IMG/VR virus record: IMGVR_UViG_3300027793_000064
Reading direction: 5' to 3' (one strand)
Length of the DNA stretch: 64,000 bases
Origin: an uncultured virus (IMG/VR IMGVR_UViG_3300027793_000064)
Lineage: Duplodnaviria; Heunggongvirae; Uroviricota; Caudoviricetes
The position numbers were made by a program, and so were the translations under genes. How positions within the stretch are numbered: position 1 is the stretch's first letter; every line of letters begins with the position of its first letter. Shown in pieces: positions 15,082-23,740 of this stretch. The notes beneath the pieces are model-generated. The model searched no databases, was not told the DNA's origin, and saw only the letters and a list, made by a program, of their open reading frames with translations.

Positions 15082-16250
15082 AATTCTCCCAAAATAATTT
15101 CCAGTAAATCCATGTCTCTATTAGAGACAAATTGATTATTTCCGATGTAGATCCCATTTTCATGGATGATATCTACATTTAAATTTTCAGTCTTTCCACT
15201 GATGGAATAATTTTTAAGATAAGGTTGTCTCAAAAGATTTCCACCAACCACAGGTCTATATTCAATTTTATACTTATCCAACAATGAAATAAGTTTAGAT
15301 TTAATTTCTTTTGTTCTACAAATAAAAGGAAAGCAGAAACAACTGTTTCCTTCATTATACACCACTGGGTAAAAATTGTCTTTATTTTTTGGAGCAGACA
15401 TAATTTCTACAAACCTAGTATATGTCTTGTCTCTATTTTCGATGAACTTATCCAATCTTTTGAGTTGAGATAATCCTAACACTGCACCAAACTCAGTGTT
15501 CCTAAAGTTATATCCATCACTTACAAATAGAAAAGATTTTTCTATTTCTAGATTTTGATTCTGATAGTACTTAAACTGGTCGGATACTCTAGCAAGTCCA
15601 TGAGACCTTTTCATTTTCATCAAGTCATATAATTCCCAACTATCTGTAGAAATCATACCACCCTCTACGGTTGACATATGATGCCCAAAGTAAAAACTAA
15701 AGGTGGCACCAAGACTATTTTTACCTATCTTATTTTCACTCTTATCAAGACATCCATGAGATTCGCAAACATCATCAATAAACAAAGCATTAGGGAATAT
15801 TTTACGATACTCTTCAATTTCAGCAGGAATTCCCAATAGATGAGTCACAAATACCATTTTAATGTCTTGATGCAACTCAGAAATAATTTTTAAGTTGTCC
15901 AAATCAAAACTATAATTTTCAAGATTTACATCACAAAAAATTGGAGTAAGTCCCAATTGAATGATTGGATTAATATTTGTAACCCAAGTGCAAGATGGGA
16001 CTAATACTTTATCACCTTTTTCTAATCCATACTTTTCTATGATAGAAGAAACTAACAAAAAGTTTGCCGTGCTTCCAGAAGTTACAAATAAAGAATACTT
16101 ACATCCTAACCATTTTGACCACTCTTTCTCAAACCTCTCAACATTTTCTCCCTGAGTAAACTTATCGGAAGTTAAAACGAACTTAGCAAGTTGAACTCTA
16201 TCCCATAAAGAGATGGAGTTTTTCATAAGAGGCCACTTATAGTCTGACAT
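15078..16250 (-). CDS. DegT/DnrJ-family PLP enzyme, ColD-type GDP-4-keto-6-deoxymannose 3-dehydratase
   Basis: SGSTAN, DVCESHG, SFYFGHHMSTVEGG with His in place of the Schiff-base Lys. Confidence 0.8.
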   Translation of the reverse strand: MSDYKWPLMKNSISLWDRVQLAKFVLTSDKFTQGENVERFEKEWSKWLGCKYSLFVTSGSTANFLLVSSIIEKYGLEKGDKVLVPSCTWVTNINPIIQLGLTPIFCDVNLENYSFDLDNLKIISELHQDIKMVFVTHLLGIPAEIEEYRKIFPNALFIDDVCESHGCLDKSENKIGKNSLGATFSFYFGHHMSTVEGGMISTDSWELYDLMKMKRSHGLARVSDQFKYYQNQNLEIEKSFLFVSDGYNFRNTEFGAVLGLSQLKRLDKFIENRDKTYTRFVEIMSAPKNKDNFYPVVYNEGNSCFCFPFICRTKEIKSKLISLLDKYKIEYRPVVGGNLLRQPYLKNYSISGKTENLNVDIIHENGIYIGNNQFVSNRDMDLLEIILGEL

Positions 16251-17199
16251 AGTTACTCCTATTTTTTAGGAACCAATCAATAGTAATTTTCAGACCATCT
16301 TCAAGAGAAGTTTTTGCTTTCCATCCCAAAGAACTCATCTTTGAAGTATCAAGTGCTCTGCGTGGAGTGCCATTTGGTTTACTAGTATCCCAAATTAACT
16401 TACCATCATATCCAACAAGATTAGAAACAACCTCAGAAAGTTCTTTGATGCTTACTTCTCTTTCAGGACCAATATTAATAATTTCTGGATCTTCGTAGTT
16501 ATTCATCAGAAAAACAAGGCCATCTGCAAGATCATCAGAGAAAAGAAATTCTCTAGTTGGGCTACCATCACCAAAACAAACTACACTTTCAACTCCAGAA
16601 TCTTTTGCGGAAACAAACTTATTAATAAAACTTGGGATTACATGACACTGCTCAAGGATAAAATTATCATTAATCCCATAAAGATTATTAGGCATTACTG
16701 ATACAGTCGGAAATCCATACTGCTCAGTGTATTTTTTACACATCATGTATCCAGCAATTTTTGCCAGAGAATAAGAAATATTTGTTTCTTCAAGTGGTCC
16801 AGTCATCAAATACTCTTCTTTGATTGGCACTGGAGCATGTTTTGGATAGATACAAGCAGATCCTAAGAAGAGCAACTTCTTACATCCATTACGATACGCT
16901 GCATCAATTACATTTGTTTGAATCTGCAAATTTTCACGAATAAAATCAGCGGGAATTGCTTTATTGTATCCAATGCCCCCTACTTTTGCTGCGCCAAGAA
17001 AAACATACTCAGGTCTTTCCTCAGCAAAAAATTCATTAACATCTTTCTGAATTCTTAGATCTAATTGTGCTCTGGAGCGAGACAAAAGATTAGTATATCC
17101 ATTAGATGTCAGATGTCTAGAAATTGCAGAACCAACAAGTCCCCTATGCCCTGCAATAAAAATCTTAGATTCAAAGTTCATTTTTACACATGTCCTCAA
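16237..17199 (-). CDS. fcl: GDP-L-fucose/colitose synthase
   Basis: [33 protein letters not shown]. Confidence 0.93.
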
Positions 17200-18172
17200 C
17201 TAGTTCATCAAAAGAAATTTTTGGTTCCCAACCAAGTTTTTGTTTAGCTTTTGTGGCATCACCCAAAAGAGTTTCCACTTCTGCAGGTCGAAAATATTTA
17301 GGATTGACTGCAATGACTTGGTTACCACTAATTGTATCATATCCAACTTCTTCTAGACCTTCTCCCATCCATGCAATTTTCATCCCAAAATAAGGTGCTG
17401 ATTTTTCTACAAATTCCCTAACAGAATATTGTTCGCCGGTTGCAATCACATAATCATCAGGTTCGTTTTGTTGTAACATCATCCACATTGCTCTCACAAA
17501 GTCAGCGGCATGTCCCCAATCTCGTTTTGAGTTTAAATTCCCGAGATATAGTATATCTTGTTTTCCAGTTGAAATGCGTGATAATCCGCGAGTGATTTTT
17601 CTTGTGACAAAAGTTTCTCCTCTTCTAGGGGATTCGTGATTGAAAAGAATTCCAGAACTTGCATGTAGTCCATATGATTCTCTGTAATTTTTGACGATCC
17701 AATATCCATAAAGTTTTGCTACTCCATAAGGCGAACGAGGATAAAAAGGTGTAGTTTCTCTCTGTGGTATCTCTTGTACCAAACCATAAAGTTCGGATGT
17801 AGATGCCTGATAAATTTTAGTTTTCTTCTCCATGCCCAAAAGACGCACTGCTTCTAGAATGCGGAGTGTTCCCAAGGCATCGACTTGTCCAGTGTATTCT
17901 GGCGTCTCAAAAGAAACTTTTACATGGCTTTGAGCACCAAGATTATAAATTTCATCTGGTTGAACTTTTTGTATAATACTAATAAGATTAGTAGAATCAG
18001 TTAAATCTCCATAATGAAGATTAATAGAATCATAGATGTGATCGATGCGAGCAGTATTAATAAGAGATGATCGTCGAATTATACCATGTACTTCATAACC
18101 TTTTTCTAATAATAGTTCGGCAAGATATGATCCATCTTGGCCCGACGCTCCAGAAATTAAAGCTTTTTTCAC
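17171..18172 (-). CDS. gmd: GDP-mannose 4,6-dehydratase
   Basis: [36 protein letters not shown]. Confidence 0.97.
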
Positions 18173-18175
18173 AGA

Positions 18176-18526
18176 TCAAATCCTCCCATAAGAATCTTCA
18201 ATTCTAACAATGTCTTCTTCAATGCATTTTTCTCCAAGTTGAACTTCTATAATTATTATACCATTATTCCCTCCAGTAATACGATGTTTGGATAAAATTG
18301 GAACAAAAATATAATCTCCAACTTTTACATTTGTAGTTTCTTCATTTAATTCCAATTTGCCACTACCGCATACCACAACCCAATGTTCATCTCTTTGTTT
18401 ATGATATTGTAAGGATATTTTTTGAGTCGGCTGAATATATAGCCTCTTAACTTTATATCCATCGTCATCTTTTAGATTTTCATGCCAACCCCAAGGTTTA
18501 TGTATTCTTTCTATCATACTGCACAA
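18176..18526 (-). CDS. Mannose-6-phosphate isomerase type II cupin domain protein
   Basis: KPWG, SLQYH..RDEHW, IEVQLG, EEDIVRIEDSYGR. Confidence 0.88.
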   Translation of the reverse strand: MCSMIERIHKPWGWHENLKDDDGYKVKRLYIQPTQKISLQYHKQRDEHWVVVCGSGKLELNEETTNVKVGDYIFVPILSKHRITGGNNGIIIIEVQLGEKCIEEDIVRIEDSYGRI

Positions 18527-19338
18527 TTTGTAAAATCGACTTGTCCATTTCGAGTTGCCCAGATTGGATACTCTTTTCCATAATTATTCCAAATCCTAGC
18601 TTGTTCTGGTCCAACTGGAACTCCACTCATCCCAGCAGCATTCCAAATAGTTTCATAAGTATCATCCTCATGGAAAGTAAAATCATGTTCTTCAGACTTA
18701 ATTTTCAATAAAAGGGAGAGGATCGATTGATCGTGTCTATGTTCTCTGAAAATCTCATTATTTGTCAATTTCGATGGACTATCATCTAGATATCTCCCAT
18801 CATCTTTGACACAAATCGACATCCATTTTTCAACTAAATCTCGAACCATTTGAGTATTTTTCAAAAAGAAAATCCCAGAAATTATTTGTTTTGTCATAAA
18901 ATGTCCATCGTCATCTCCCATAATATGACAATAAGTATCCATTTTTGTCCATTGAATTTCGGGTAAATCCAAAGTAAAAAACACTCCTTCAGTATCAATG
19001 CATTCATCATAATACTGATTCAATTTCACCAATCCATTTTTATTCAATTCACAACCAGAATCAACATACAATAGAATATCATTTTCTGGGATACTTTTTA
19101 GAGCCTCCAAAACAAAATAGGGTTTACATGCATAATAGCCATAGTATCTCTGGTTCAATCCAGAACGAAGAGACATCATTGGTTTTATATGGTTGTCCCA
19201 AAAAGAGTTGTTCTCTAAGTCATCCTCCCCATATTCAAGTATTGACTTAAATATTCCAAAATTTTTTGCTTGGTTTTCAATTCTCTTCTTTCCTATAGAA
19301 AAATTATTATCCCCAAAATAAGTTAAGTGCAAATTCAT
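18514..19338 (-). CDS. Putative nucleotide-diphospho-sugar transferase
   Basis: CKPY, LLYVDSGC, EHRHDQSILS. Confidence 0.65.
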   Translation of the reverse strand: MNLHLTYFGDNNFSIGKKRIENQAKNFGIFKSILEYGEDDLENNSFWDNHIKPMMSLRSGLNQRYYGYYACKPYFVLEALKSIPENDILLYVDSGCELNKNGLVKLNQYYDECIDTEGVFFTLDLPEIQWTKMDTYCHIMGDDDGHFMTKQIISGIFFLKNTQMVRDLVEKWMSICVKDDGRYLDDSPSKLTNNEIFREHRHDQSILSLLLKIKSEEHDFTFHEDDTYETIWNAAGMSGVPVGPEQARIWNNYGKEYPIWATRNGQVDFTNCAV

Positions 19339-19364
19339 ATGGCAGTAATCACCGATTCATACGC

Positions 19365-19400
19365 ATTATACCAAAAAAGAGGAGTTGTTGTCAACTCCTC
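19365..19400 (-). promoter_or_regulatory. Terminator hairpin overlapping a sigma70 promoter for the sugar island
   Basis: GAGGAGTTG-ACAA-CAACTCCTC-TTTTTT containing TTGACA-N18-TATAAT. Confidence 0.7.
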
Positions 19401-19402
19401 CA

Positions 19403-19820
19403 TCAGGTCTGCCATGCACGCCACCAATTCTTTAACTGGAAATTGGAAACCAGGCGGGAGTAACCTCCACATCCGCACCAGTCGTCATATTTAATGTCCA
19501 TACGACGAGGACAATTTTGGGTCACAATTGGCTCCACCACTTAGTTTTGAGAAACTAAGAAAAGTTGTGCTAATTTACTCAATTCGATCATACTAAAGAA
19601 AACGCATAATAACAACATATCCCATAATCTAAATTTAATCACAAAAGGAACAATAAGTAGTCCCCCAATAAACTTCAATAATAGACCACTTTTGAAATCC
19701 CCCCATAACATAATTTGATAACCAATAATGAGAAAAAGATTTCCAAGGTACCTAAGAACACTAGTTTTAGACATAAGGGAAGCACTCCGACCAGGGCAAG
19801 TTTTAAGTCATTCCGAGACT
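19403..19820 (-). ncRNA. Multi-pseudoknot structured RNA (manA-motif-like), interrupted by an ORF
   Basis: Three H-type pseudoknots (19540-19582, 19482-19513, 19424-19453), each followed by UGGYG; separate 5' module at 19775-19820; followed by a terminator; near tRNAs and mannose genes. Family assignment from memory, not searched. Confidence 0.6.
19541..19774 (-). CDS. Small multi-TM membrane protein embedded in the structured RNA
   Basis: 77-aa hydrophobic ORF, LRYLGNLFLIIGY...LWDMLLL. Confidence 0.7.
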   Translation of the reverse strand: MSKTSVLRYLGNLFLIIGYQIMLWGDFKSGLLLKFIGGLLIVPFVIKFRLWDMLLLCVFFSMIELSKLAQLFLVSQN

Positions 19821-19825
19821 ATTTA

Positions 19826-20050
19826 CTATGCAGGAACATCGACTTGAAGATCTTCACAAAGAAGGCTCAAAATTAACTCATAATCAGCTTCCGATTCCTG
19901 ATAAAACTGAATTCCTTGCTCTTCATAAAATTTTTTAACCTTTTTGAAGAGTTTTGGTTGATCATATTCTAGATCAATTTCTCGGTTTGCGGCACGAGTA
20001 AGAGTATAAATTGATTTGCGAAACTTTGAATTGAAAGGATGATTAGACAT
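19826..20050 (-). CDS. Hypothetical protein
   Basis: ORF track; ATG at 20050 lies downstream of the promoter at 20073-20101. Confidence 0.7.
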   Translation of the reverse strand: MSNHPFNSKFRKSIYTLTRAANREIDLEYDQPKLFKKVKKFYEEQGIQFYQESEADYELILSLLCEDLQVDVPA

Positions 20051-20072
20051 TGGTTGAATTTGATTCGTTCCT

Positions 20073-20101
20073 ATTATAAGAGAGAATTGGTGAGATGTCA
20101 A
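20073..20101 (-). promoter_or_regulatory. Sigma70-type promoter
   Basis: TTGACA-N17-TATAAT, perfect consensus. Confidence 0.85.
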
Positions 20102-20124
20102 GGGGCACCAAGAATAAAATTTTC

Positions 20125-20976: not shown

Positions 20977-21052
20977 TCCGGATACTCAGATTTGAACTGA
21001 GATTATTCCTGCTCCCAAAGCAGGTGCCATGACCAAGTTAGGCGATATCCGG
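20977..21052 (-). tRNA. tRNA-Pro(UGG)
   Basis: Acceptor CCGGATA/TATCCGG; CCTGC-TTTGGGA-GCAGG; TTCAAAT T-loop. Confidence 0.92.
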
Positions 21053-21061
21053 GAATTTAAG

Positions 21062-21178
21062 CTATTTATTATTTGAGTGTATGACCATAATACCAAAGAT
21101 AGGAACCATTGTCAAGAGAAAACAGAGAGTCCCTAAAAATAGACTATTGTTTAATAGTGTTCCAATCAGATGTCCCAT
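21062..21178 (-). CDS. Small membrane protein (38 aa)
   Basis: MGHLIGTLLNNSLFLGTLCFLLTMVPIFGIMVIH; overlaps the upstream stop. Confidence 0.45.
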   Translation of the reverse strand: MGHLIGTLLNNSLFLGTLCFLLTMVPIFGIMVIHSNNK

Positions 21179-21288
21179 TCTTCTTTTTCGTCTTCATAAG
21201 TACATGGTTCTTCAAAGAGTTCAATCATTTTTTGCTGTAGAACTCTCTGTTGCAATTTTTCTATATCTTCTTCTGTTAATTCAATCAC
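21166..21288 (-). CDS. Small hypothetical protein (40 aa)
   Basis: GTG start with GGAG RBS; GTGA overlap; MIELTEEDIEKLQQRVL... Confidence 0.5.
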   Translation of the reverse strand: MIELTEEDIEKLQQRVLQQKMIELFEEPCTYEDEKEEWDI

Positions 21289-21443
21289 TTATATTTGCCT
21301 TCTCCTCCAAGAAATTTTTCTAGTGGATCTTTTCTTGTTTTTGATATTTCCACGGCTCTTTTATAAAACATATTATCCGTATTACCAGAAGCTTCGAATG
21401 TGGCTTTTATTTTTAACCAATTTTCGTATGTCCGTTGGTCCAT
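21285..21443 (-). CDS. Small hypothetical protein (52 aa)
   Basis: MDQRTYENWLKIKATFEASGNTDNMFYKRA... Confidence 0.55.
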   Translation of the reverse strand: MDQRTYENWLKIKATFEASGNTDNMFYKRAVEISKTRKDPLEKFLGGEGKYK

Positions 21444-21511
21444 TAGAATATATCATATTATCACTAATTATAATTGGTAAATTCTCAGTGTCAATCATAT
21501 GTCACGAAATC

Positions 21512-21883
21512 TTAATAACCGTGATTGATAATAGTTTTCGTGTACTTCCTTAAAATCTCTCCGGCTCTAGAATTTGCTTCATTTTCGCATTCACTTCCAG
21601 TTTCTCCGCTCATTTCTTTTCCACTTTGTTTTTGATGATAATGTACAAGTTCATGCGCAAGAGTTCTATAAACATCTAATGGATGTCTTTGTGCAGTCTG
21701 AATTTTAATCTCGTCCGTGCCAAGATTAAAACAACCAAAAGTTTTATTGTCAATTGAGAACTTGGGATCATCTATTACAATAACTTTTGGTAAAGTAGAT
21801 AACCCAAGTTCATCCTTGACAAAATTCATAAAATCTTTAACTTGAACCTTTTTTGATTCAGTAAGAAACTCTTTGAATCTCAT
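21512..21883 (-). CDS. HExxH metallopeptidase-like protein
   Basis: RTLAHELVHYHQ...ENEAN. Confidence 0.75.
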   Translation of the reverse strand: MRFKEFLTESKKVQVKDFMNFVKDELGLSTLPKVIVIDDPKFSIDNKTFGCFNLGTDEIKIQTAQRHPLDVYRTLAHELVHYHQKQSGKEMSGETGSECENEANSRAGEILRKYTKTIINHGY

Positions 21884-21898
21884 GAGTTTTTTATGTAT

Positions 21899-22150
21899 TT
21901 ATCTGACTTCAAAATCTAATCTACGAACCTTTCTTTGTCTTCTGGCCTCCTGCCACATAATGTCTTCATTTGTTAATACTTTTGTTGATTCTTTTTGTGC
22001 GGGAGAATTCAACATGACAATTTTCGATAAATCTACTGCAGATATTTTATCTTCTTTTATTGTTGCCATATTGGGACAACCACAAGACTTCGACTGGCCA
22101 GGTCTTGCCGTCACTTCAGTATTGCACTGTTTGCATCTTATCTTTAACAT
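21899..22150 (-). CDS. Zn-ribbon hypothetical protein
   Basis: CKQC...CGCPN. Confidence 0.7.
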   Translation of the reverse strand: MLKIRCKQCNTEVTARPGQSKSCGCPNMATIKEDKISAVDLSKIVMLNSPAQKESTKVLTNEDIMWQEARRQRKVRRLDFEVR

Positions 22151-22249
22151 TTCTATTCATTATGAATATTTGCGTTTGATTATTTATAATAAAAAAGCCC
22201 ACGCAATGTGAGCTTTTAAAGAATAGATATAAGATTTAACATATTTTAA

Positions 22250-22322
22250 CTCCCCCAGTCCGACTCGAACGAACAACCCCAGAGTTAACAGCTCCGTGCT
22301 CTGCCAATTGAGCTATAGGGGA
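22250..22322 (-). tRNA. tRNA-Asn(GUU)
   Basis: TCCCCTA/TGGGGGA acceptor; GGAG-CTGTTAA-CTCT; TTCGAGT. Confidence 0.92.
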
Positions 22323-22326
22323 ATGT

Positions 22327-22397
22327 AGGAAGTTACTGGACTTACACCAGTTCGAAGGGCATTGTCTGCTTGTCTCGATTCTTTGACTTAACTTCCT
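22327..22397 (-). ncRNA. tRNA-like structured RNA without a canonical anticodon arm
   Basis: AGGAAGTT/AACTTCCT terminal stem stacked on ACTGG-TGTAAGT-CCAGT; lies between tRNA-Gly and tRNA-Asn. Confidence 0.55.
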
Positions 22398-22436
22398 TTG
22401 GTCTTCAGTTAGGATACATACCTAACAAACACCAAA

Positions 22437-22507
22437 AGCGAAATACGGGATTCGAACCCGTGACACCAACTTGGAAGGATGGGATGTTACCACTACACCA
22501 ATTTCGC
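22437..22507 (-). tRNA. tRNA-Gly(UCC)
   Basis: GCGAAAT/ATTTCGC acceptor; CTTCCAA loop; TTCGAAT. Confidence 0.92.
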
Positions 22508-22550
22508 AATAAAACAATCATACCATATTTATGAATGACTGCCAAACTTA

Positions 22551-22745
22551 TCAAGAGTTTTTTTGTATTACTTCAAGATCAGTTCCAATAGCACGAAGCC
22601 ATGTATTTAAATTCTCCATAACAAATTCATCATCTGGATTTTCAAAATTGATACGAATATCACGGATTGTATCGTGGTTTTCATTCCTGGCGGAATAACC
22701 AAGATCATAGTTTGTGTTCACAACTTGTTTTTTGGGCATAATCAA
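22551..22745 (-). CDS. Hypothetical protein
   Basis: ORF track, 64 aa, within the tRNA island. Confidence 0.6.
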   Translation of the reverse strand: MIMPKKQVVNTNYDLGYSARNENHDTIRDIRINFENPDDEFVMENLNTWLRAIGTDLEVIQKNS

Positions 22746-22780
22746 TTAAGAATGTAATACGGAGATATTTCAGTATCTCA

Positions 22781-22860
22781 TGCTCGAAACAGGAGTCGAA
22801 CCTGCAAGCCGAAGCGGTTGATTTTGAGTCAACTGTGTATACCAATTCCACCATTCGAGC
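22781..22860 (-). tRNA. tRNA-Leu(CAA)
   Basis: GCTCGAA/TTCGAGC; GTTGA-CTCAAAA-TCAAC; long variable arm. Confidence 0.92.
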
Positions 22861-22900
22861 TGGCGTCTCAGGTTGGATTCGAACCAACGACCAACTGCTT
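22861..22900 (-). pseudogene. 3' half of split tRNA-Arg(UCU)
   Basis: AAGCAGTTGGTC-GTTGG-TTCGAAT-CCAAC-CTGAGAC-GCCA; the acceptor strand is complementary to 23499-23505. Confidence 0.85.
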
Positions 22901-23314
22901 ATCAGGAATACTAAGATAATCTTCAGCCAAGTTTATACCAATTTTTTGATTATTCTTGGGAGGAACTAATCTTAGGACAAATGTGTTACTACAATCATTT
23001 GGATTTATGTAGTAACACATATCTGTGTCTGGACAGTAGACGCACATTACATCAATTTCATTTTTATCATAATTTTGAGTATGTGTTCCATTTTTATCTG
23101 TCCAGCAAGTCCTGAATGGAACTTCTATTTTACCATCTTTTGATGCTCTATACTTGACTTGAACTCTTAAAAAGTTTCCATCTTTGTAGGCAACAAGATC
23201 AAAGGCAGAATGTTCTGTATGAGGAGTAAGAATTAAGTATCCTTTCTCATATAGATCAAGTTGTGCTTTTAGGACTCCAAGATCTCCTTTGTTTTTAGTA
23301 TGATGTTCCCTCAT
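22868..23314 (-). CDS. PD-(D/E)XK homing endonuclease (I-Ssp6803I/PDDEXK_5-like)
   Basis: HTKNKGDLG, FDLVAY, RVQVKY, YDKNEID..CVYCP. Confidence 0.85.
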   Translation of the reverse strand: MREHHTKNKGDLGVLKAQLDLYEKGYLILTPHTEHSAFDLVAYKDGNFLRVQVKYRASKDGKIEVPFRTCWTDKNGTHTQNYDKNEIDVMCVYCPDTDMCYYINPNDCSNTFVLRLVPPKNNQKIGINLAEDYLSIPDKQLVVGSNPT

Positions 23315-23328
23315 ACAAGTAACGATAT

Positions 23329-23347
23329 CTCTTATTATTTATAAGAG
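23329..23347 (-). promoter_or_regulatory. Late promoter TATAAATA within a hairpin upstream of the endonuclease
   Basis: CTCTTAT-AAATA-ATAAGAG. Confidence 0.7.
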
Positions 23348-23382
23348 TAGCAACTTACCAGTATGTTACTCAGAACAACCAA

Positions 23383-23454
23383 CAGGCTCACCTGGAATCG
23401 AACCAGGGACATTCGCTTAGAAGGCGAAGGTTATATCCGCTTAACTATGAGCCC
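23383..23454 (-). tRNA. tRNA-Arg(UCU), intact, nested inside the split tRNA-Arg
   Basis: GGGCTCA/TGAGCCT; TTCGC-CTTCTAA-GCGAA; CCTGG-TTCGATT-CCAGG. Confidence 0.92.
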
Positions 23455-23468
23455 AAGCGGTTGTTCTA

Positions 23469-23505
23469 AGAAATCAGATACTCTATCCAAGTGAGCTACT
23501 GAGAC
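23469..23505 (-). pseudogene. 5' half of split tRNA-Arg(UCU)
   Basis: GTCTCAG-TA-GCTC-ACTTGGATA-GAGT-A-TCTGA-TT-TCT, ending at the anticodon. Confidence 0.85.
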
Positions 23506-23543
23506 ATAAGACAATCATAAGACATTTATCTTAGATTGTCAAG
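23506..23543 (-). promoter_or_regulatory. tRNA promoter cassette 1
   Basis: CTTGACAAT-N14-TATGATTGTCTTAT. Confidence 0.8.
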
Positions 23544-23617
23544 TGGAAACACTGGGGATTGAACCCAGAACCTCACGCTTATAAGGCGTGTGCTCTAACC
23601 AGTTGAGCTATGTTTCC
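23544..23617 (-). tRNA. tRNA-Ile(UAU)
   Basis: GGAAACA/TGTTTCC; CACGC-CTTATAA-GCGTG. Confidence 0.88.
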
Positions 23618-23618
23618 G

Positions 23619-23656
23619 ATAAGACAATTATAAGGCAGAACCTTGGAATTGTCAAG
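23619..23656 (-). promoter_or_regulatory. tRNA promoter cassette 2
   Basis: CTTGACAAT-N14-TATAATTGTCTTAT. Confidence 0.85.
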
Positions 23657-23740
23657 TGCGAGTAGGGAGACTCGAACTCCCACGGGATTAACTCCCAACG
23701 GATTTTAAGTCCGGTGCGGCTACCATTACGCCATACTCGC
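23657..23740 (-). tRNA. tRNA-Leu(UAA)
   Basis: GCGAGTA/TACTCGC; CGGA-CTTAAAA-TCCG; long variable arm. Confidence 0.92.

Follow-up and report, generated by a model that had tools for sequence, protein, structure and literature searches.

The locus lies on the minus strand of a 64,000-nucleotide stretch (hereafter, the window) of an uncultured member of the Caudoviricetes (IMG/VR record IMGVR_UViG_3300027793_000064), a freshwater cyanophage whose blastn matches were all to Synechococcus phages (51 of 51). Read along that strand (Table 1), a candidate promoter precedes gene X, whose TAG stop codon lies 5 nt upstream of the first of four RNA blocks (M0), and M0 is followed by a 77-codon gene (ORF77) and by the blocks M1, M2 and M3. 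The array runs into an intrinsic terminator, whose hairpin (loop and part of the stem) holds the TTGACA -35 element of a second predicted promoter, with the extended -10 element TG-TATAAT after the T-run. Behind it lies an operon whose first gene (274 aa) has a weak Glyco_transf_34 match and an S-SRM01 homologue annotated as a glycosyltransferase; the operon also encodes a mannose-6-phosphate isomerase-type cupin, a GDP-mannose 4,6-dehydratase and a GDP-fucose synthase-like epimerase. The sequence elements listed for this strand by an earlier, sequence-only reading are all present, as are the terminator that it placed at the end of the unit and the separate promoter that it assigned to the downstream genes, the activity of the latter being predicted from a 12/12 match to the sigma-70 consensus. 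Such a combination of terminator and promoter occurs at only three sites in the window, and the other two (22217-22193 and 2761-2740) are weaker.

Table 1. Features of the wcaG locus, in order of transcription along the minus strand.
Feature	Position	Strand	Basis
Candidate sigma-70-type promoter (TTGACA, 17 nt spacer, TATAAT; 12/12)	20073..20101	-	consensus scan only
Gene X, 74 aa from ATG 20050 (PHROG 552)	19826..20050	-	ORF + PHROG
M0 (5' module of the sequence-only reading)	19778..19820	-	sequence + 46-relative alignment
M0 hairpin AGTC / GACT, A-rich spacer after	19820-19817 / 19809-19806	-	
M0 CTGGTCGG	19794-19787	-	
M0 closing mini-hairpin GGAG..TTCC, containing the likely ORF77 Shine-Dalgarno	19788-19778	-	
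ORF77, conserved 77-aa protein (PHROG 2318), three predicted helices	19541..19774	-	tblastn, PHROG, predicted structure
M1 (unit 1 of the sequence-only reading): hairpin, then TGGTGGAG (19539-19532)	19532..19559	-	relatives' alignment
M1 hairpin arms	19559-19553 / 19546-19540	-	covariation
Linker CCAATTGTGACCC	19519..19531	-	read from alignments
RF01761 match	19410..19514	-	Rfam
M2 (wcaG P1, 'type II' pseudoknot), ending in TGGTGCGGAT	19471..19513	-	Rfam + relatives' alignment
M2 knot stem	19512-19509 / 19499-19496	-	Rfam + alignment
M2 second stem	19506-19502 / 19485-19481	-	Rfam + alignment
wcaG P2 hairpin GGAG..CTCC, flanking GCGG/CCGC bases	19453..19470	-	Rfam alignment
M3 (wcaG P3 + pseudoknot), ending in TGGCGTGC	19416..19453	-	Rfam + relatives' alignment
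M3 knot CTGG / CCAG	19453-19450 / 19439-19436	-	Rfam + alignment
M3 stem	19446-19441 / 19429-19424	-	Rfam + alignment
Intrinsic terminator: 10-bp stem, 4-nt loop, T-run (stem-loop 19401-19378)	19372..19401	-	sequence scan
Predicted sigma-70 promoter overlapping the terminator (TTGACA, 18 nt spacer, TG-TATAAT; 12/12)	19365..19394	-	consensus scan
Downstream sugar-nucleotide operon	16237..19338	-	annotation + domain matches

The array almost certainly belongs to a known family, the wcaG RNAs of T4-like cyanophages. An Rfam scan matched RF01761 (wcaG RNA) at 68.4 bits (gathering score 42; E 1.3e-10) over model positions 1-98 of 98, and the whole 79-kb record gave the identical match. The sequence-only reading had named manA instead and had proposed an Rfam search to check this; with the ORF retained, that search placed wcaG above its gathering score, whereas for manA nothing in the window reached the gathering score and nothing within positions 19200-20000 came up at E <= 10. 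The match comprises the second and third pseudoknots of that reading, and both the UGGUGCGGAUG single strand after P1 and the GUGGCG after P3 are present in the Rfam alignment and in the sequence. More generally, wcaG RNAs are chains of a repeated block, each with a single-stranded UGGYG after a small H-type pseudoknot or hairpin: the Rfam model holds two such blocks joined by hairpin P2, and the present phage holds four, M0 to M3, with ORF77 between M0 and M1. The family is thus known and its arrangement here is new, a four-block chain that encloses a conserved membrane-protein gene. A 7-bp hairpin directly 5' of TGGYG occurs at only three sites in the window, the three units of the sequence-only reading, and relaxing the stem to at least 6 bp yields 11 matches, against 3.35 +/- 2.2 in shuffled sequence. 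The single sequence does not fold with unusual energy, either in the 3' array (z -1.54) or in the 5' module (z +0.21).

Compensatory changes among relatives support M2, M3 and the hairpins of M1 and M0, and together with the Rfam match they bear out the proposed modular chain of pseudoknots. Unit 3 (M3) stands as first drawn: in its knot CTGG/CCAG, 96.9% of cells are paired and two of four pairs have changed on both sides; in its stem CCAATT/AATTGG, 99.8% are paired and five of seven pairs are compensatory (72 distinct sequences). The M3 covariation score was reached by 0 of 500 shuffles. In unit 2 (M2), the knot stem GTCC/GGAC is conserved (93.3% paired, 3 of 5 pairs compensatory; 15 sequences), as is the second stem, in a register shifted by 3 from that first drawn: the family register is paired in 100% of cells (4 of 5 pairs compensatory; 15 sequences) and the original one in 70.8%. 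Only the first of the three tandem H-type pseudoknots fails, its knot TTGAG/CTCAA being paired in just 41.7% of cells and not conserved. The M1 hairpin CTTAGTT/AACTAAG is paired in 100% of cells, and four of its seven pairs are compensatory (48 distinct sequences). Each of the three units is followed by TGGYG, as had been noted, in the sequence as well as in the Rfam alignment. The linker between M1 and M2 is the counterpart of a conserved GTCA..TGACCC mini-hairpin that relatives carry in the P2 position, a correspondence read from the alignments.

At the other end of the chain, the M0 hairpin is Watson-Crick paired in 100% of 46 sequences and includes two covarying pairs (AU in 40 and CG in 6; UA in 32 and AU in 14), and the CTGGTCG of M0 is invariant among them. 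A mutual-information scan for a second M0 stem gave no consistent helix, the pairs that it returned being 24-44 (CG 43, UA 3) and 29-39 (UA 16, GC 18, AA 11). The closing mini-hairpin covers the purines ahead of the ORF77 ATG. This variant of the block is already among the rows of the 2010 wcaG seed alignment. The TAAATA that had been counted as part of the unit precedes the 5' hairpin in just 14 of 46 relatives; as a conserved late promoter it was rejected on the same count, a TATAAATA-like octamer occurring in 0 of 46.

Judging from its conservation and predicted structure, ORF77 is a real, conserved gene for a three-helix membrane protein. It has 93 relatives by tblastn, matches PHROG 2318 (E 3.8e-19), varies at 39, 27 and 64 of 70 sites in the first, second and third codon positions, and is predicted to form helices at residues 3-23, 27-47 and 51-76 (pLDDT 85.5). 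We found no Pfam family at E <= 0.01 and, with Foldseek against the PDB, nothing at E <= 0.001; VIA-align returned only generic three-helix bundles, the best (Z 10.4) being a designed repeat protein. A SemiSWEET-like sugar carrier, guessed from three helices in 77 aa, was dropped for want of a supporting match, and DUF6552, carried by Atlas neighbours, serves as a lead only. The gene runs into the RNA: its stop codon TAA (19543-19541) lies in the 3' arm of M1 here and in the loop in most relatives, and the earlier claim that unit 1 overlaps the last codons and stop of the ORF therefore holds for the covarying M1 hairpin. At one locus (L059) the M1 hairpin is itself wcaG P1, and the Rfam match starts inside the ORF. 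Coding sequence and RNA structure thus overlap at the end of ORF77, and whichever RNA block the ORF reads into determines the C-terminal residues of this conserved membrane protein. Because in related phages the same blocks form a single chain without the ORF, the description of a membrane-protein gene nested inside an RNA, here between M0 and M1, is a fair one.

The same layout is found in S-SRM01 and S-CAM7, and the number of blocks per chain varies among relatives; two loci (L019 and L083) carry extra ORFs between M1 and the core. M0 is absent, with the rest kept, in 6 of 62 ORF77 relatives, and is therefore dispensable, so that the two ends of the chain are not one obligate fold. Blocks tend to follow the ends of other genes: at 49 of 52 loci an ORF of 50 codons or more lies upstream and terminates between -18 and +18 nt from the first base of the M0 hairpin, and at two loci (L104 and L160) an M0-type block begins 1-2 nt past a tRNA 3' end. 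No wcaG-type block was detected behind the window's seven tRNA genes by a scan for hairpins of at least 6 bp plus TGGYG, which misses the 4-bp M0 type. On the downstream side, the chain directly adjoins a start codon at three loci (L104, L157 and L158), and at two others (L087 and L112) the downstream ATG lies 7 nt past the terminator stem and no promoter was found, so that the downstream gene would be expressed by read-through alone; where a chain directly meets a start codon, or meets a terminator that leaves no space for a promoter, a cis-regulatory role may therefore apply. The genes downstream of wcaG RNAs are consistently sugar-nucleotide enzymes, and the first of them differs among loci (a gene with an S-SRM01 homologue annotated as a glycosyltransferase, a GDP-mannose dehydratase-like start, or other, unrelated N-termini).

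How often the RNA is separated from these genes was counted in an unbiased sample obtained by an exact 14-mer scan (78 distinct loci: 24 chance matches, 2 too short and 52 true wcaG RNAs). A terminator starts within 60 nt of the RNA in 37 of the 52, and 33 of these 37 terminators, hence 33 of 52 wcaG RNAs, have a TTGNNN -35 element in the terminator loop with a TATAAT-like -10 element. Among the ORF77-linked cores, 50 of 52 are followed by a terminator and 46 of those 50 by the promoter. Published accounts treat wcaG as a 5'-UTR element, which would stand between a promoter and a start codon, but at the present locus the terminator and the predicted 12/12 promoter intervene, as they do in those 33 relatives. 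Nor did any antiterminator pairing covary with the terminator: over 79 combinations (50 distinct arms), the predicted duplex energy of the terminator's 5' arm was -9.97 kcal/mol with its own core versus -9.91 kcal/mol with the cores of other loci (permutation p = 0.35). Overall, the wcaG chain resembles an element at the end of a transcript more than it does a riboswitch in a 5' UTR.

Freshwater metatranscriptomes from three studies contain contigs that span the 5' module, ORF77 and wcaG together (X1, two overlapping contigs, 19398-19813; X2, 19417-19804; X3, 19415-19821). The 5' and 3' modules had been proposed to share one transcript, and these contigs place them on one, within the limits of assembled contigs, which are blind to starts, ends, strand and level. 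Another contig (X4, 19348-19777) crosses the terminator. Cover has gaps at about 19822-19860 (X1 and X3) and at 20068-20124, although contig gaps prove nothing.

We consider it possible, with a probability of roughly 0.4, that the chain is the tail of the upstream transcript and consists of end-of-unit elements acting in cis, rather than a ligand switch for the downstream genes. Transcription would likely start at the candidate promoter near 20100, to judge by its consensus match, and proceed through gene X and ORF77 into the chain, which would then be the tail of this transcript and not the leader of the sugar genes. The chain would run into the strong terminator, and the consensus promoter buried there would restart transcription for the sugar operon. 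The blocks would be portable, self-folding elements that follow stop codons and, in relatives, also the 3' ends of tRNAs, where they may set the stability or processing of the ends of the RNA that carries them and perhaps tune how much transcription leaks past the terminator, without together forming one ligand pocket that switches downstream genes. Several observations weigh against reading the chain as a transcript end: X4 crosses the terminator, two loci need read-through, and three have chains adjoining the start codon. The sugar-nucleotide genes behind wcaG are what a metabolite sensor predicts, the unremarkable folding energy also counts against a transcript-end role, and the placement of blocks behind stop codons may merely reflect the tight packing of phage genes.

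A bolder version, which we regard as doubtful, would make the blocks portable RNA 'end caps', and not aptamers, that mark, process or protect the pieces of long early transcripts. Pseudoknots plus UGGYG would immediately follow stop codons and the 3' ends of tRNAs and precede terminators, and protein genes could have arisen or been inserted between two caps, their reading frames running on into a cap as far as its conserved UAA. Because most mature tRNAs end in C-R-C-C-A, to which UGGYG is complementary, the blocks might even touch tRNA ends, in the way that the UGGN of T-boxes pairs with them.

The chief alternative to a transcript tail is the riboswitch proposed in 2010, in which binding of a small molecule, such as a sugar nucleotide, would control read-through of the terminator into the sugar operon or translation of the adjacent ORFs, with the buried promoter supplying only a basal, unregulated level; we consider it unlikely. 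The 2010 survey graded wcaG 'probably' for both cis-regulation and riboswitch function, on the grounds that it precedes non-homologous genes and folds in a complex way, and the wcaG row of its summary table carries no terminator code (Weinberg et al. 2010, Genome Biol 11:R31, PMC2864571). That rating is joined by the sugar-nucleotide enzymes downstream, here and in relatives, by the terminators that begin within 60 nt of the RNA at 37 of 52 loci, by the five loci that lack room for a promoter or adjoin a start codon, and by the mini-hairpin of M0 that covers the purines before the ORF77 ATG. However, a near-consensus promoter separates the RNA from the genes at 33 of 52 loci, no alternative pairing covaries with the terminator (p = 0.35), and a variable number and order of blocks, inserted ORFs and a dispensable M0 would be unusual for a single ligand pocket. 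Our literature search found no report of a wcaG ligand, and wcaG is absent from the main text of a 2020 review of orphan riboswitches.

A free-standing architectural RNA, as the sequence-only reading proposed, or a trans-acting one, which would persist after termination or processing and multimerise or bind proteins or tRNA ends, is distinctly improbable. A 2026 preprint reports by cryo-EM that manA RNAs form decamers and a 60-mer cage in vitro, but its main text has no occurrence of wcaG. The chain is predicted to lie at the 3' end of its transcript, and its several copies of single-stranded UGGYG would lend themselves to multivalent binding; against this, half of the RNA unit is given over to a translated ORF, and conserved self-complementary loops were not noticed in an unsystematic look. 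That RNA contigs from three studies start at M0 and end just past M3 is a weak hint only, as contigs are blind to abundance and ends.

Processive antitermination, by which the nascent chain would modify polymerases arriving from upstream so that they ignore the terminator and others further on in the sugar cluster, is more improbable still. HK022 put and the Bacillus eps-associated EAR RNA act in this way. The chain immediately precedes a terminator, with polysaccharide-type genes beyond it, the mechanism needs no overlap with the terminator and so fits the null antiterminator test, and X4 crosses the terminator. Yet the downstream operon has its own strong predicted promoter at 33 of 52 loci, other chains precede tRNA genes, or adjoin a start codon without an intervening terminator, and Rfam finds no likeness to epsC/EAR or put within 19200-20000 at E <= 10. 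Last, a DNA-level recombination linker, a homology patch like the PeSLs reported to mediate modular shuffling in T4-like phages (PMC2839356, PMC4122927), would account for the differing first genes behind a conserved chain as swapped sugar-gene cassettes, but is very improbable given that compensatory changes keep stems and knots paired, which points to selection on RNA and not on DNA alone, and that the terminator/promoter composite is nearly unique in the window and not repeated around many ORFs.

Among known systems, the composite at the 3' end of the chain resembles PeSLs, which combine a strong sigma-70-like promoter with a stem-loop terminator (Arbiol et al. 2010, PMC2839356; Comeau et al. 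2014, PMC4122927). Both are promoter/stem-loop composites between genes in the variable region of T4-like phages, and here too a sigma-70 promoter and a stem-loop terminator are predicted from sequence within one short intergenic element. As described in those papers, PeSLs of coliphages and vibriophages are densely repeated on the flanks of ORFans, with the stem-loop mostly between the -35 and -10 elements or over the -10, whereas the present composite is tied to the 3' end of a wcaG chain, has its -35 element in the terminator loop and occurs at three sites in the window. The epsC motif, or EAR (RF01735), shares with wcaG a pseudoknot, a link to exopolysaccharide genes and a listing among the riboswitch candidates of 2010; it differs in its fold and hosts, lacks modular UGGYG blocks and has no Rfam match in 19200-20000 at E <= 10. 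EAR RNA was later assigned to processive antitermination. The sister cyanophage motif manA (RF01745) is, like wcaG, an orphan structured RNA found in T4-like cyanophages and in marine metagenomes; it has two similar halves in tandem, contains pseudoknots and lies near mannose genes. The 2026 cage and decamer structures, as reported, are of manA only, and the window has no manA match at gathering score.

Closest is wcaG itself, an orphan riboswitch candidate since 2010 that is routinely annotated in cyanophages as a cis-regulator of exopolysaccharide genes. That a terminator and a fresh promoter cut off 33 of 52 sampled copies from the sugar genes, and that the RNA consists of independent blocks in a row, which sit at stop codons and tRNA ends and can enclose a protein gene, are reasons to test other roles, among them transcript-end stability, processing and read-through, for which S-SRM01 and S-CAM7 offer cultured phages with the same layout. 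The present RNA matches the model over its full length, shares P1, P2 and P3, the pseudoknot with which the family was already drawn, and the UGGUGCGGAUG and GUGGCG strands, and has the same hosts (T4-like cyanophages and aquatic metagenomes) and neighbourhood of GDP-sugar genes. Rows of the 2010 seed already include the variant of the 5' module, a P1 lying over an ORF stop codon, and tandem matches on one scaffold. The catalogued unit, however, has two blocks, whereas the chain described here has four, with a conserved gene between M0 and M1.

An Rfam scan of the whole window at curated cut-offs returned seven tRNAs and one wcaG RNA, and nothing else (Table). The sequence-only reading had assigned the element to manA, with wcaG as its named alternative: manA is absent from the window at these cut-offs and from 19200-20000 even at E <= 10, the wcaG model matches, and membership of the RNA in the wcaG family is secure. 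The sole additional wcaG signal at E <= 10 in 19200-20000 lies at 19526-19617 (15 bits, E 4.7). The parent record is a 79-kb uncultivated virus, and all blastn matches of the region (51/51) are to Synechococcus T4-like cyanophages. As an RNA family the element is not new, its block variants being already among the seed rows of the first description (Weinberg et al., 2010; PMC2864571), which draws the RNA as a pseudoknot plus three hairpins. The supplementary seed alignment of that paper holds a first-block variant of the form AGUC..GACU..CCCUGGUCGG, some rows with P1 followed by UGGUGGAGUCA..GACCC, one row that starts with CAACUUUUCCUAGUUUCGUAA (the end of an ORF77 homologue, see below), and pairs of neighbouring hits that share a scaffold, where the 5'-module type runs straight into a unit-1-type hairpin. 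The family is known; the arrangement is new and informative.

Table. Coordinates of the wcaG chain, of related features and of RNA-library contigs (X1-X4, metatranscriptome runs; L-numbers, related viral loci)
Feature	Position	Strand	Details
5' block (M0)	19778-19820	minus	
ORF77	19541-19774	minus	77 aa
wcaG RNA (RF01761)	19410-19514	minus	Rfam full model, 68.4 bits vs cut-off 42
tRNA-trailing M0-type block	L104:469-560 and L160:735-640	minus (L160)	AGTC..GACT hairpin, then CCCTGGTGGAG or CCCTGGTCGGG
Weak promoter-like pair	22217-22193	minus	TTGCGT, 16 nt, AATAAT, over terminator-like hairpin
Weak promoter-like pair	2761-2740	minus	ATGAAA, 19 nt, AATAAT, over terminator-like hairpin
X1 contig cover	19398-19567 plus 19538-19813		
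X2 contig cover	19417-19804		
X3 contig cover	19415-19821		
X4 contig cover	19348-19777		

Because single-sequence folding energies are unremarkable (z -1.54 and +0.21), the case for structure rests on covariation across homologues. Three tandem H-type pseudoknots had been proposed (units 1-3), of which units 2 and 3 covary in both helices. In unit 3 (wcaG P3; 72 distinct sequences out of 77 after removal of one chance match and four length variants, the window standing in for the identical copy L004), 99.8% of stem cells are paired with both-sided changes in five of seven pairs, 96.9% of cells in the knot CUGG/CCAG are paired with two of four pairs compensatory, and score and percentage paired were both reached by 0/500 shuffles. 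Among 15 distinct copies of the window's variant of unit 2 (wcaG P1), the proposed knot stem is 93.3% paired (3/5 compensatory pairs), and the second stem is 100% paired (4/5 compensatory) in the family register, three bases away from the proposed one, which reaches 70.8%. The unit 1 hairpin is fully paired, with compensatory changes in four of seven pairs, in 48 distinct sequences out of 55 (set aside were two copies identical or near-identical to the window, and six with an ORF that runs out in a different type of block); the knot proposed for it is paired in just 41.7% of cells and does not stand. The 4-bp hairpin of M0 is Watson-Crick in all 46 sequences, with two covarying pairs and an invariant CUGGUCG 3' of it, and UGGYG, as had been noticed after each pseudoknot, closes every block. 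Two versions of the tail 3' of the last block (19416-19403, minus strand, and relatives) are conserved, one reading GAGCCTGAGTTAC.. and the other GTGCATGAAAGACC.., the former resembling the linker plus the start of a next block (GCCTGGTTTC), as if a further repeat had decayed.

ORF77, the 77-aa three-helix ORF between M0 and unit 1, is conserved as a gene. Tblastn found 93 relatives in viral contigs (at 65-100% identity for the 80 retained loci), and homologues also occur in the cyanophage isolates S-CAM7 and S-SRM01. Across 58 distinct ORFs, 39, 27 and 64 of 70 sites vary at the three codon positions, synonymous differences (31,412) exceed non-synonymous ones (22,422), and the alternative two frames carry means of 3.8 to 5.0 stops. 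The protein matches PHROG 2318, which has no assigned function, and no Pfam family; its AlphaFold model has three helices (pLDDT 85.5), for which structure searches returned generic three-helix bundles only. Among 63 distinct ORF77-linked loci, M0 is present at 56/62, a hairpin across the ORF77 stop followed by UGGUGG at 60/63 (one further locus uses the hairpin as wcaG P1), and the wcaG core, i.e., the Rfam match, at 52 of the 59 with enough sequence. For a sample free of ORF bias we used an exact 14-mer scan, which gave at least 78 distinct loci; the 78 among the matches listed comprise 24 chance hits in unrelated GC-rich DNA, two that are too short and 52 true wcaG RNAs. In this sample, 24/54 wcaG RNAs among the matches listed have an M0-type block <=200 nt upstream and no ORF77, and in the rows read the ORF77-free loci form a single uninterrupted chain from that block to wcaG. 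The window's gene therefore lies inside an RNA that is contiguous elsewhere, which upholds the proposed nesting.

The ORF77 C-terminus tracks the type of RNA block entered: it reads ..FLVS(QN) at the unit-1 hairpin and ..SPGMT at four loci (L075, L077, L080, L082) where the frame enters an M0-type hairpin instead. At L059:1681-1805 the stop hairpin is P1 of a full Rfam wcaG match (1708-1805, 76.5 bits), and with the ORF stop at 1728, ~20 nt of catalogued wcaG RNA are coding. A second gene can also occupy the chain, since L019, L023, L082 and L083 carry an additional small ORF 3' of the stop-spanning hairpin and GTGGTGGAGTC..GACCC linker. Downstream of it lies a wcaG core in L019 and L083 and a degenerate one in L023; L082 has no core pattern within 700 nt but a type-II block further downstream. 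In L028 the linker is truncated and followed by another ORF, with a type-II block ~580 nt downstream.

Assembled contigs from four freshwater metatranscriptome runs (three studies) contain the stretch (Table), so that 5' block, ORF and wcaG core share RNA-library contigs; those of three runs end just before the terminator and one crosses it. Such contigs are blind to true ends, strand and level and may include DNA carry-over, and their cover is a weak hint, short of proof. Two of the contigs from RNA libraries match the chain over just 36-43 nt (loose ends at 19573 and 19461) before passing into sequence of other variants, in one case a different ORF77 allele and in the other a different wcaG P1; these libraries seem to include related phages that carry this element.

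Blocks lie where coding or tRNA units end. An ORF of >=50 codons upstream of M0 stops <=18 nt from the 5' base of the M0 hairpin in 49/52 distinct loci, and 11/54 wcaG RNAs (14-mer sample, among the matches listed) have a tRNA gene <=600 nt away. An M0-type block starts 1-2 nt past the 3' end of tRNA-Arg (L104) and tRNA-Ile (L160), followed by further blocks and a full wcaG RNA. The window's own tRNAs showed no trailing wcaG-type block in a hairpin scan blind to M0-type blocks; its seven tRNA genes form a same-strand cluster (20977-23740, minus) that lies ~1.2 kb upstream of the chain. In L088, L114, L116 and L137 a GC-rich hairpin without T-run follows the wcaG 3' end and tRNA genes come next, the chain therefore fronting a tRNA cluster; in L137 the hairpin's loop holds TTGACA, with TATAAT 17 nt on.

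A terminator and an own promoter for the downstream genes had both been proposed, and the sequence bears both out: ~ten nt 3' of the Rfam match lies a 10-bp terminator hairpin with T-run, overlapped by a predicted sigma-70 promoter matching 12 of 12 consensus positions (TTGACA in the hairpin, TG-TATAAT past the T-run). In the 14-mer sample (among the matches listed), a terminator starts <=60 nt after wcaG at 37/52 loci, 33/37 of these carrying a TTGNNN -35 in the terminator loop and, after a gap of 16-18 nt, a TATAAT-like -10; the other 15 have further blocks, a T-run-less hairpin then tRNA genes, or an immediate start codon. The ORF77 set has terminators at 50/52 and promoters at 46/50. At L087 and L112, in the stretch ~20-50 nt past the 3' end of wcaG, the terminator stem is followed 7 nt later by the ATG of the next gene, which is homologous to the window's 274-aa gene (a glycosyltransferase by its S-SRM01 annotation); no promoter was found, and this gene seems to depend on read-through. 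Pairing of the terminator 5' arm, as in an antiterminator, was no stronger with its own core than with other loci's cores (-9.97 vs -9.91 kcal/mol; permutation p = 0.35).

The mechanism of the wcaG chain is not secure. Tentatively, at a probability of about 40%, the blocks would be self-contained boundary elements acting on their own transcript. We prefer boundary elements over a riboswitch, in which the chain is a single ligand pocket switching sugar genes, because the blocks behave like beads and are placed at coding/tRNA unit ends, a terminator and fresh promoter follow most chains, and no antiterminator with covariation was found; steady association with sugar-nucleotide genes and some loci without a promoter behind the chain speak for a riboswitch, which we nevertheless consider doubtful. 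The free-standing RNA of the sequence-only reading is improbable, put/EAR-like antitermination slightly more so, and a linker acting purely at the DNA level highly implausible. The terminator/promoter composite is nearly unique within the 64-kb window, where the only other promoter-like hexamer pairs over terminator-like hairpins are two weak ones (Table). Although it lacks the high copy number of the promoter-early stem-loop (PeSL) cassettes of T4-like phages, the window's composite resembles them as described in the PeSL papers (PMC2839356, PMC4122927).
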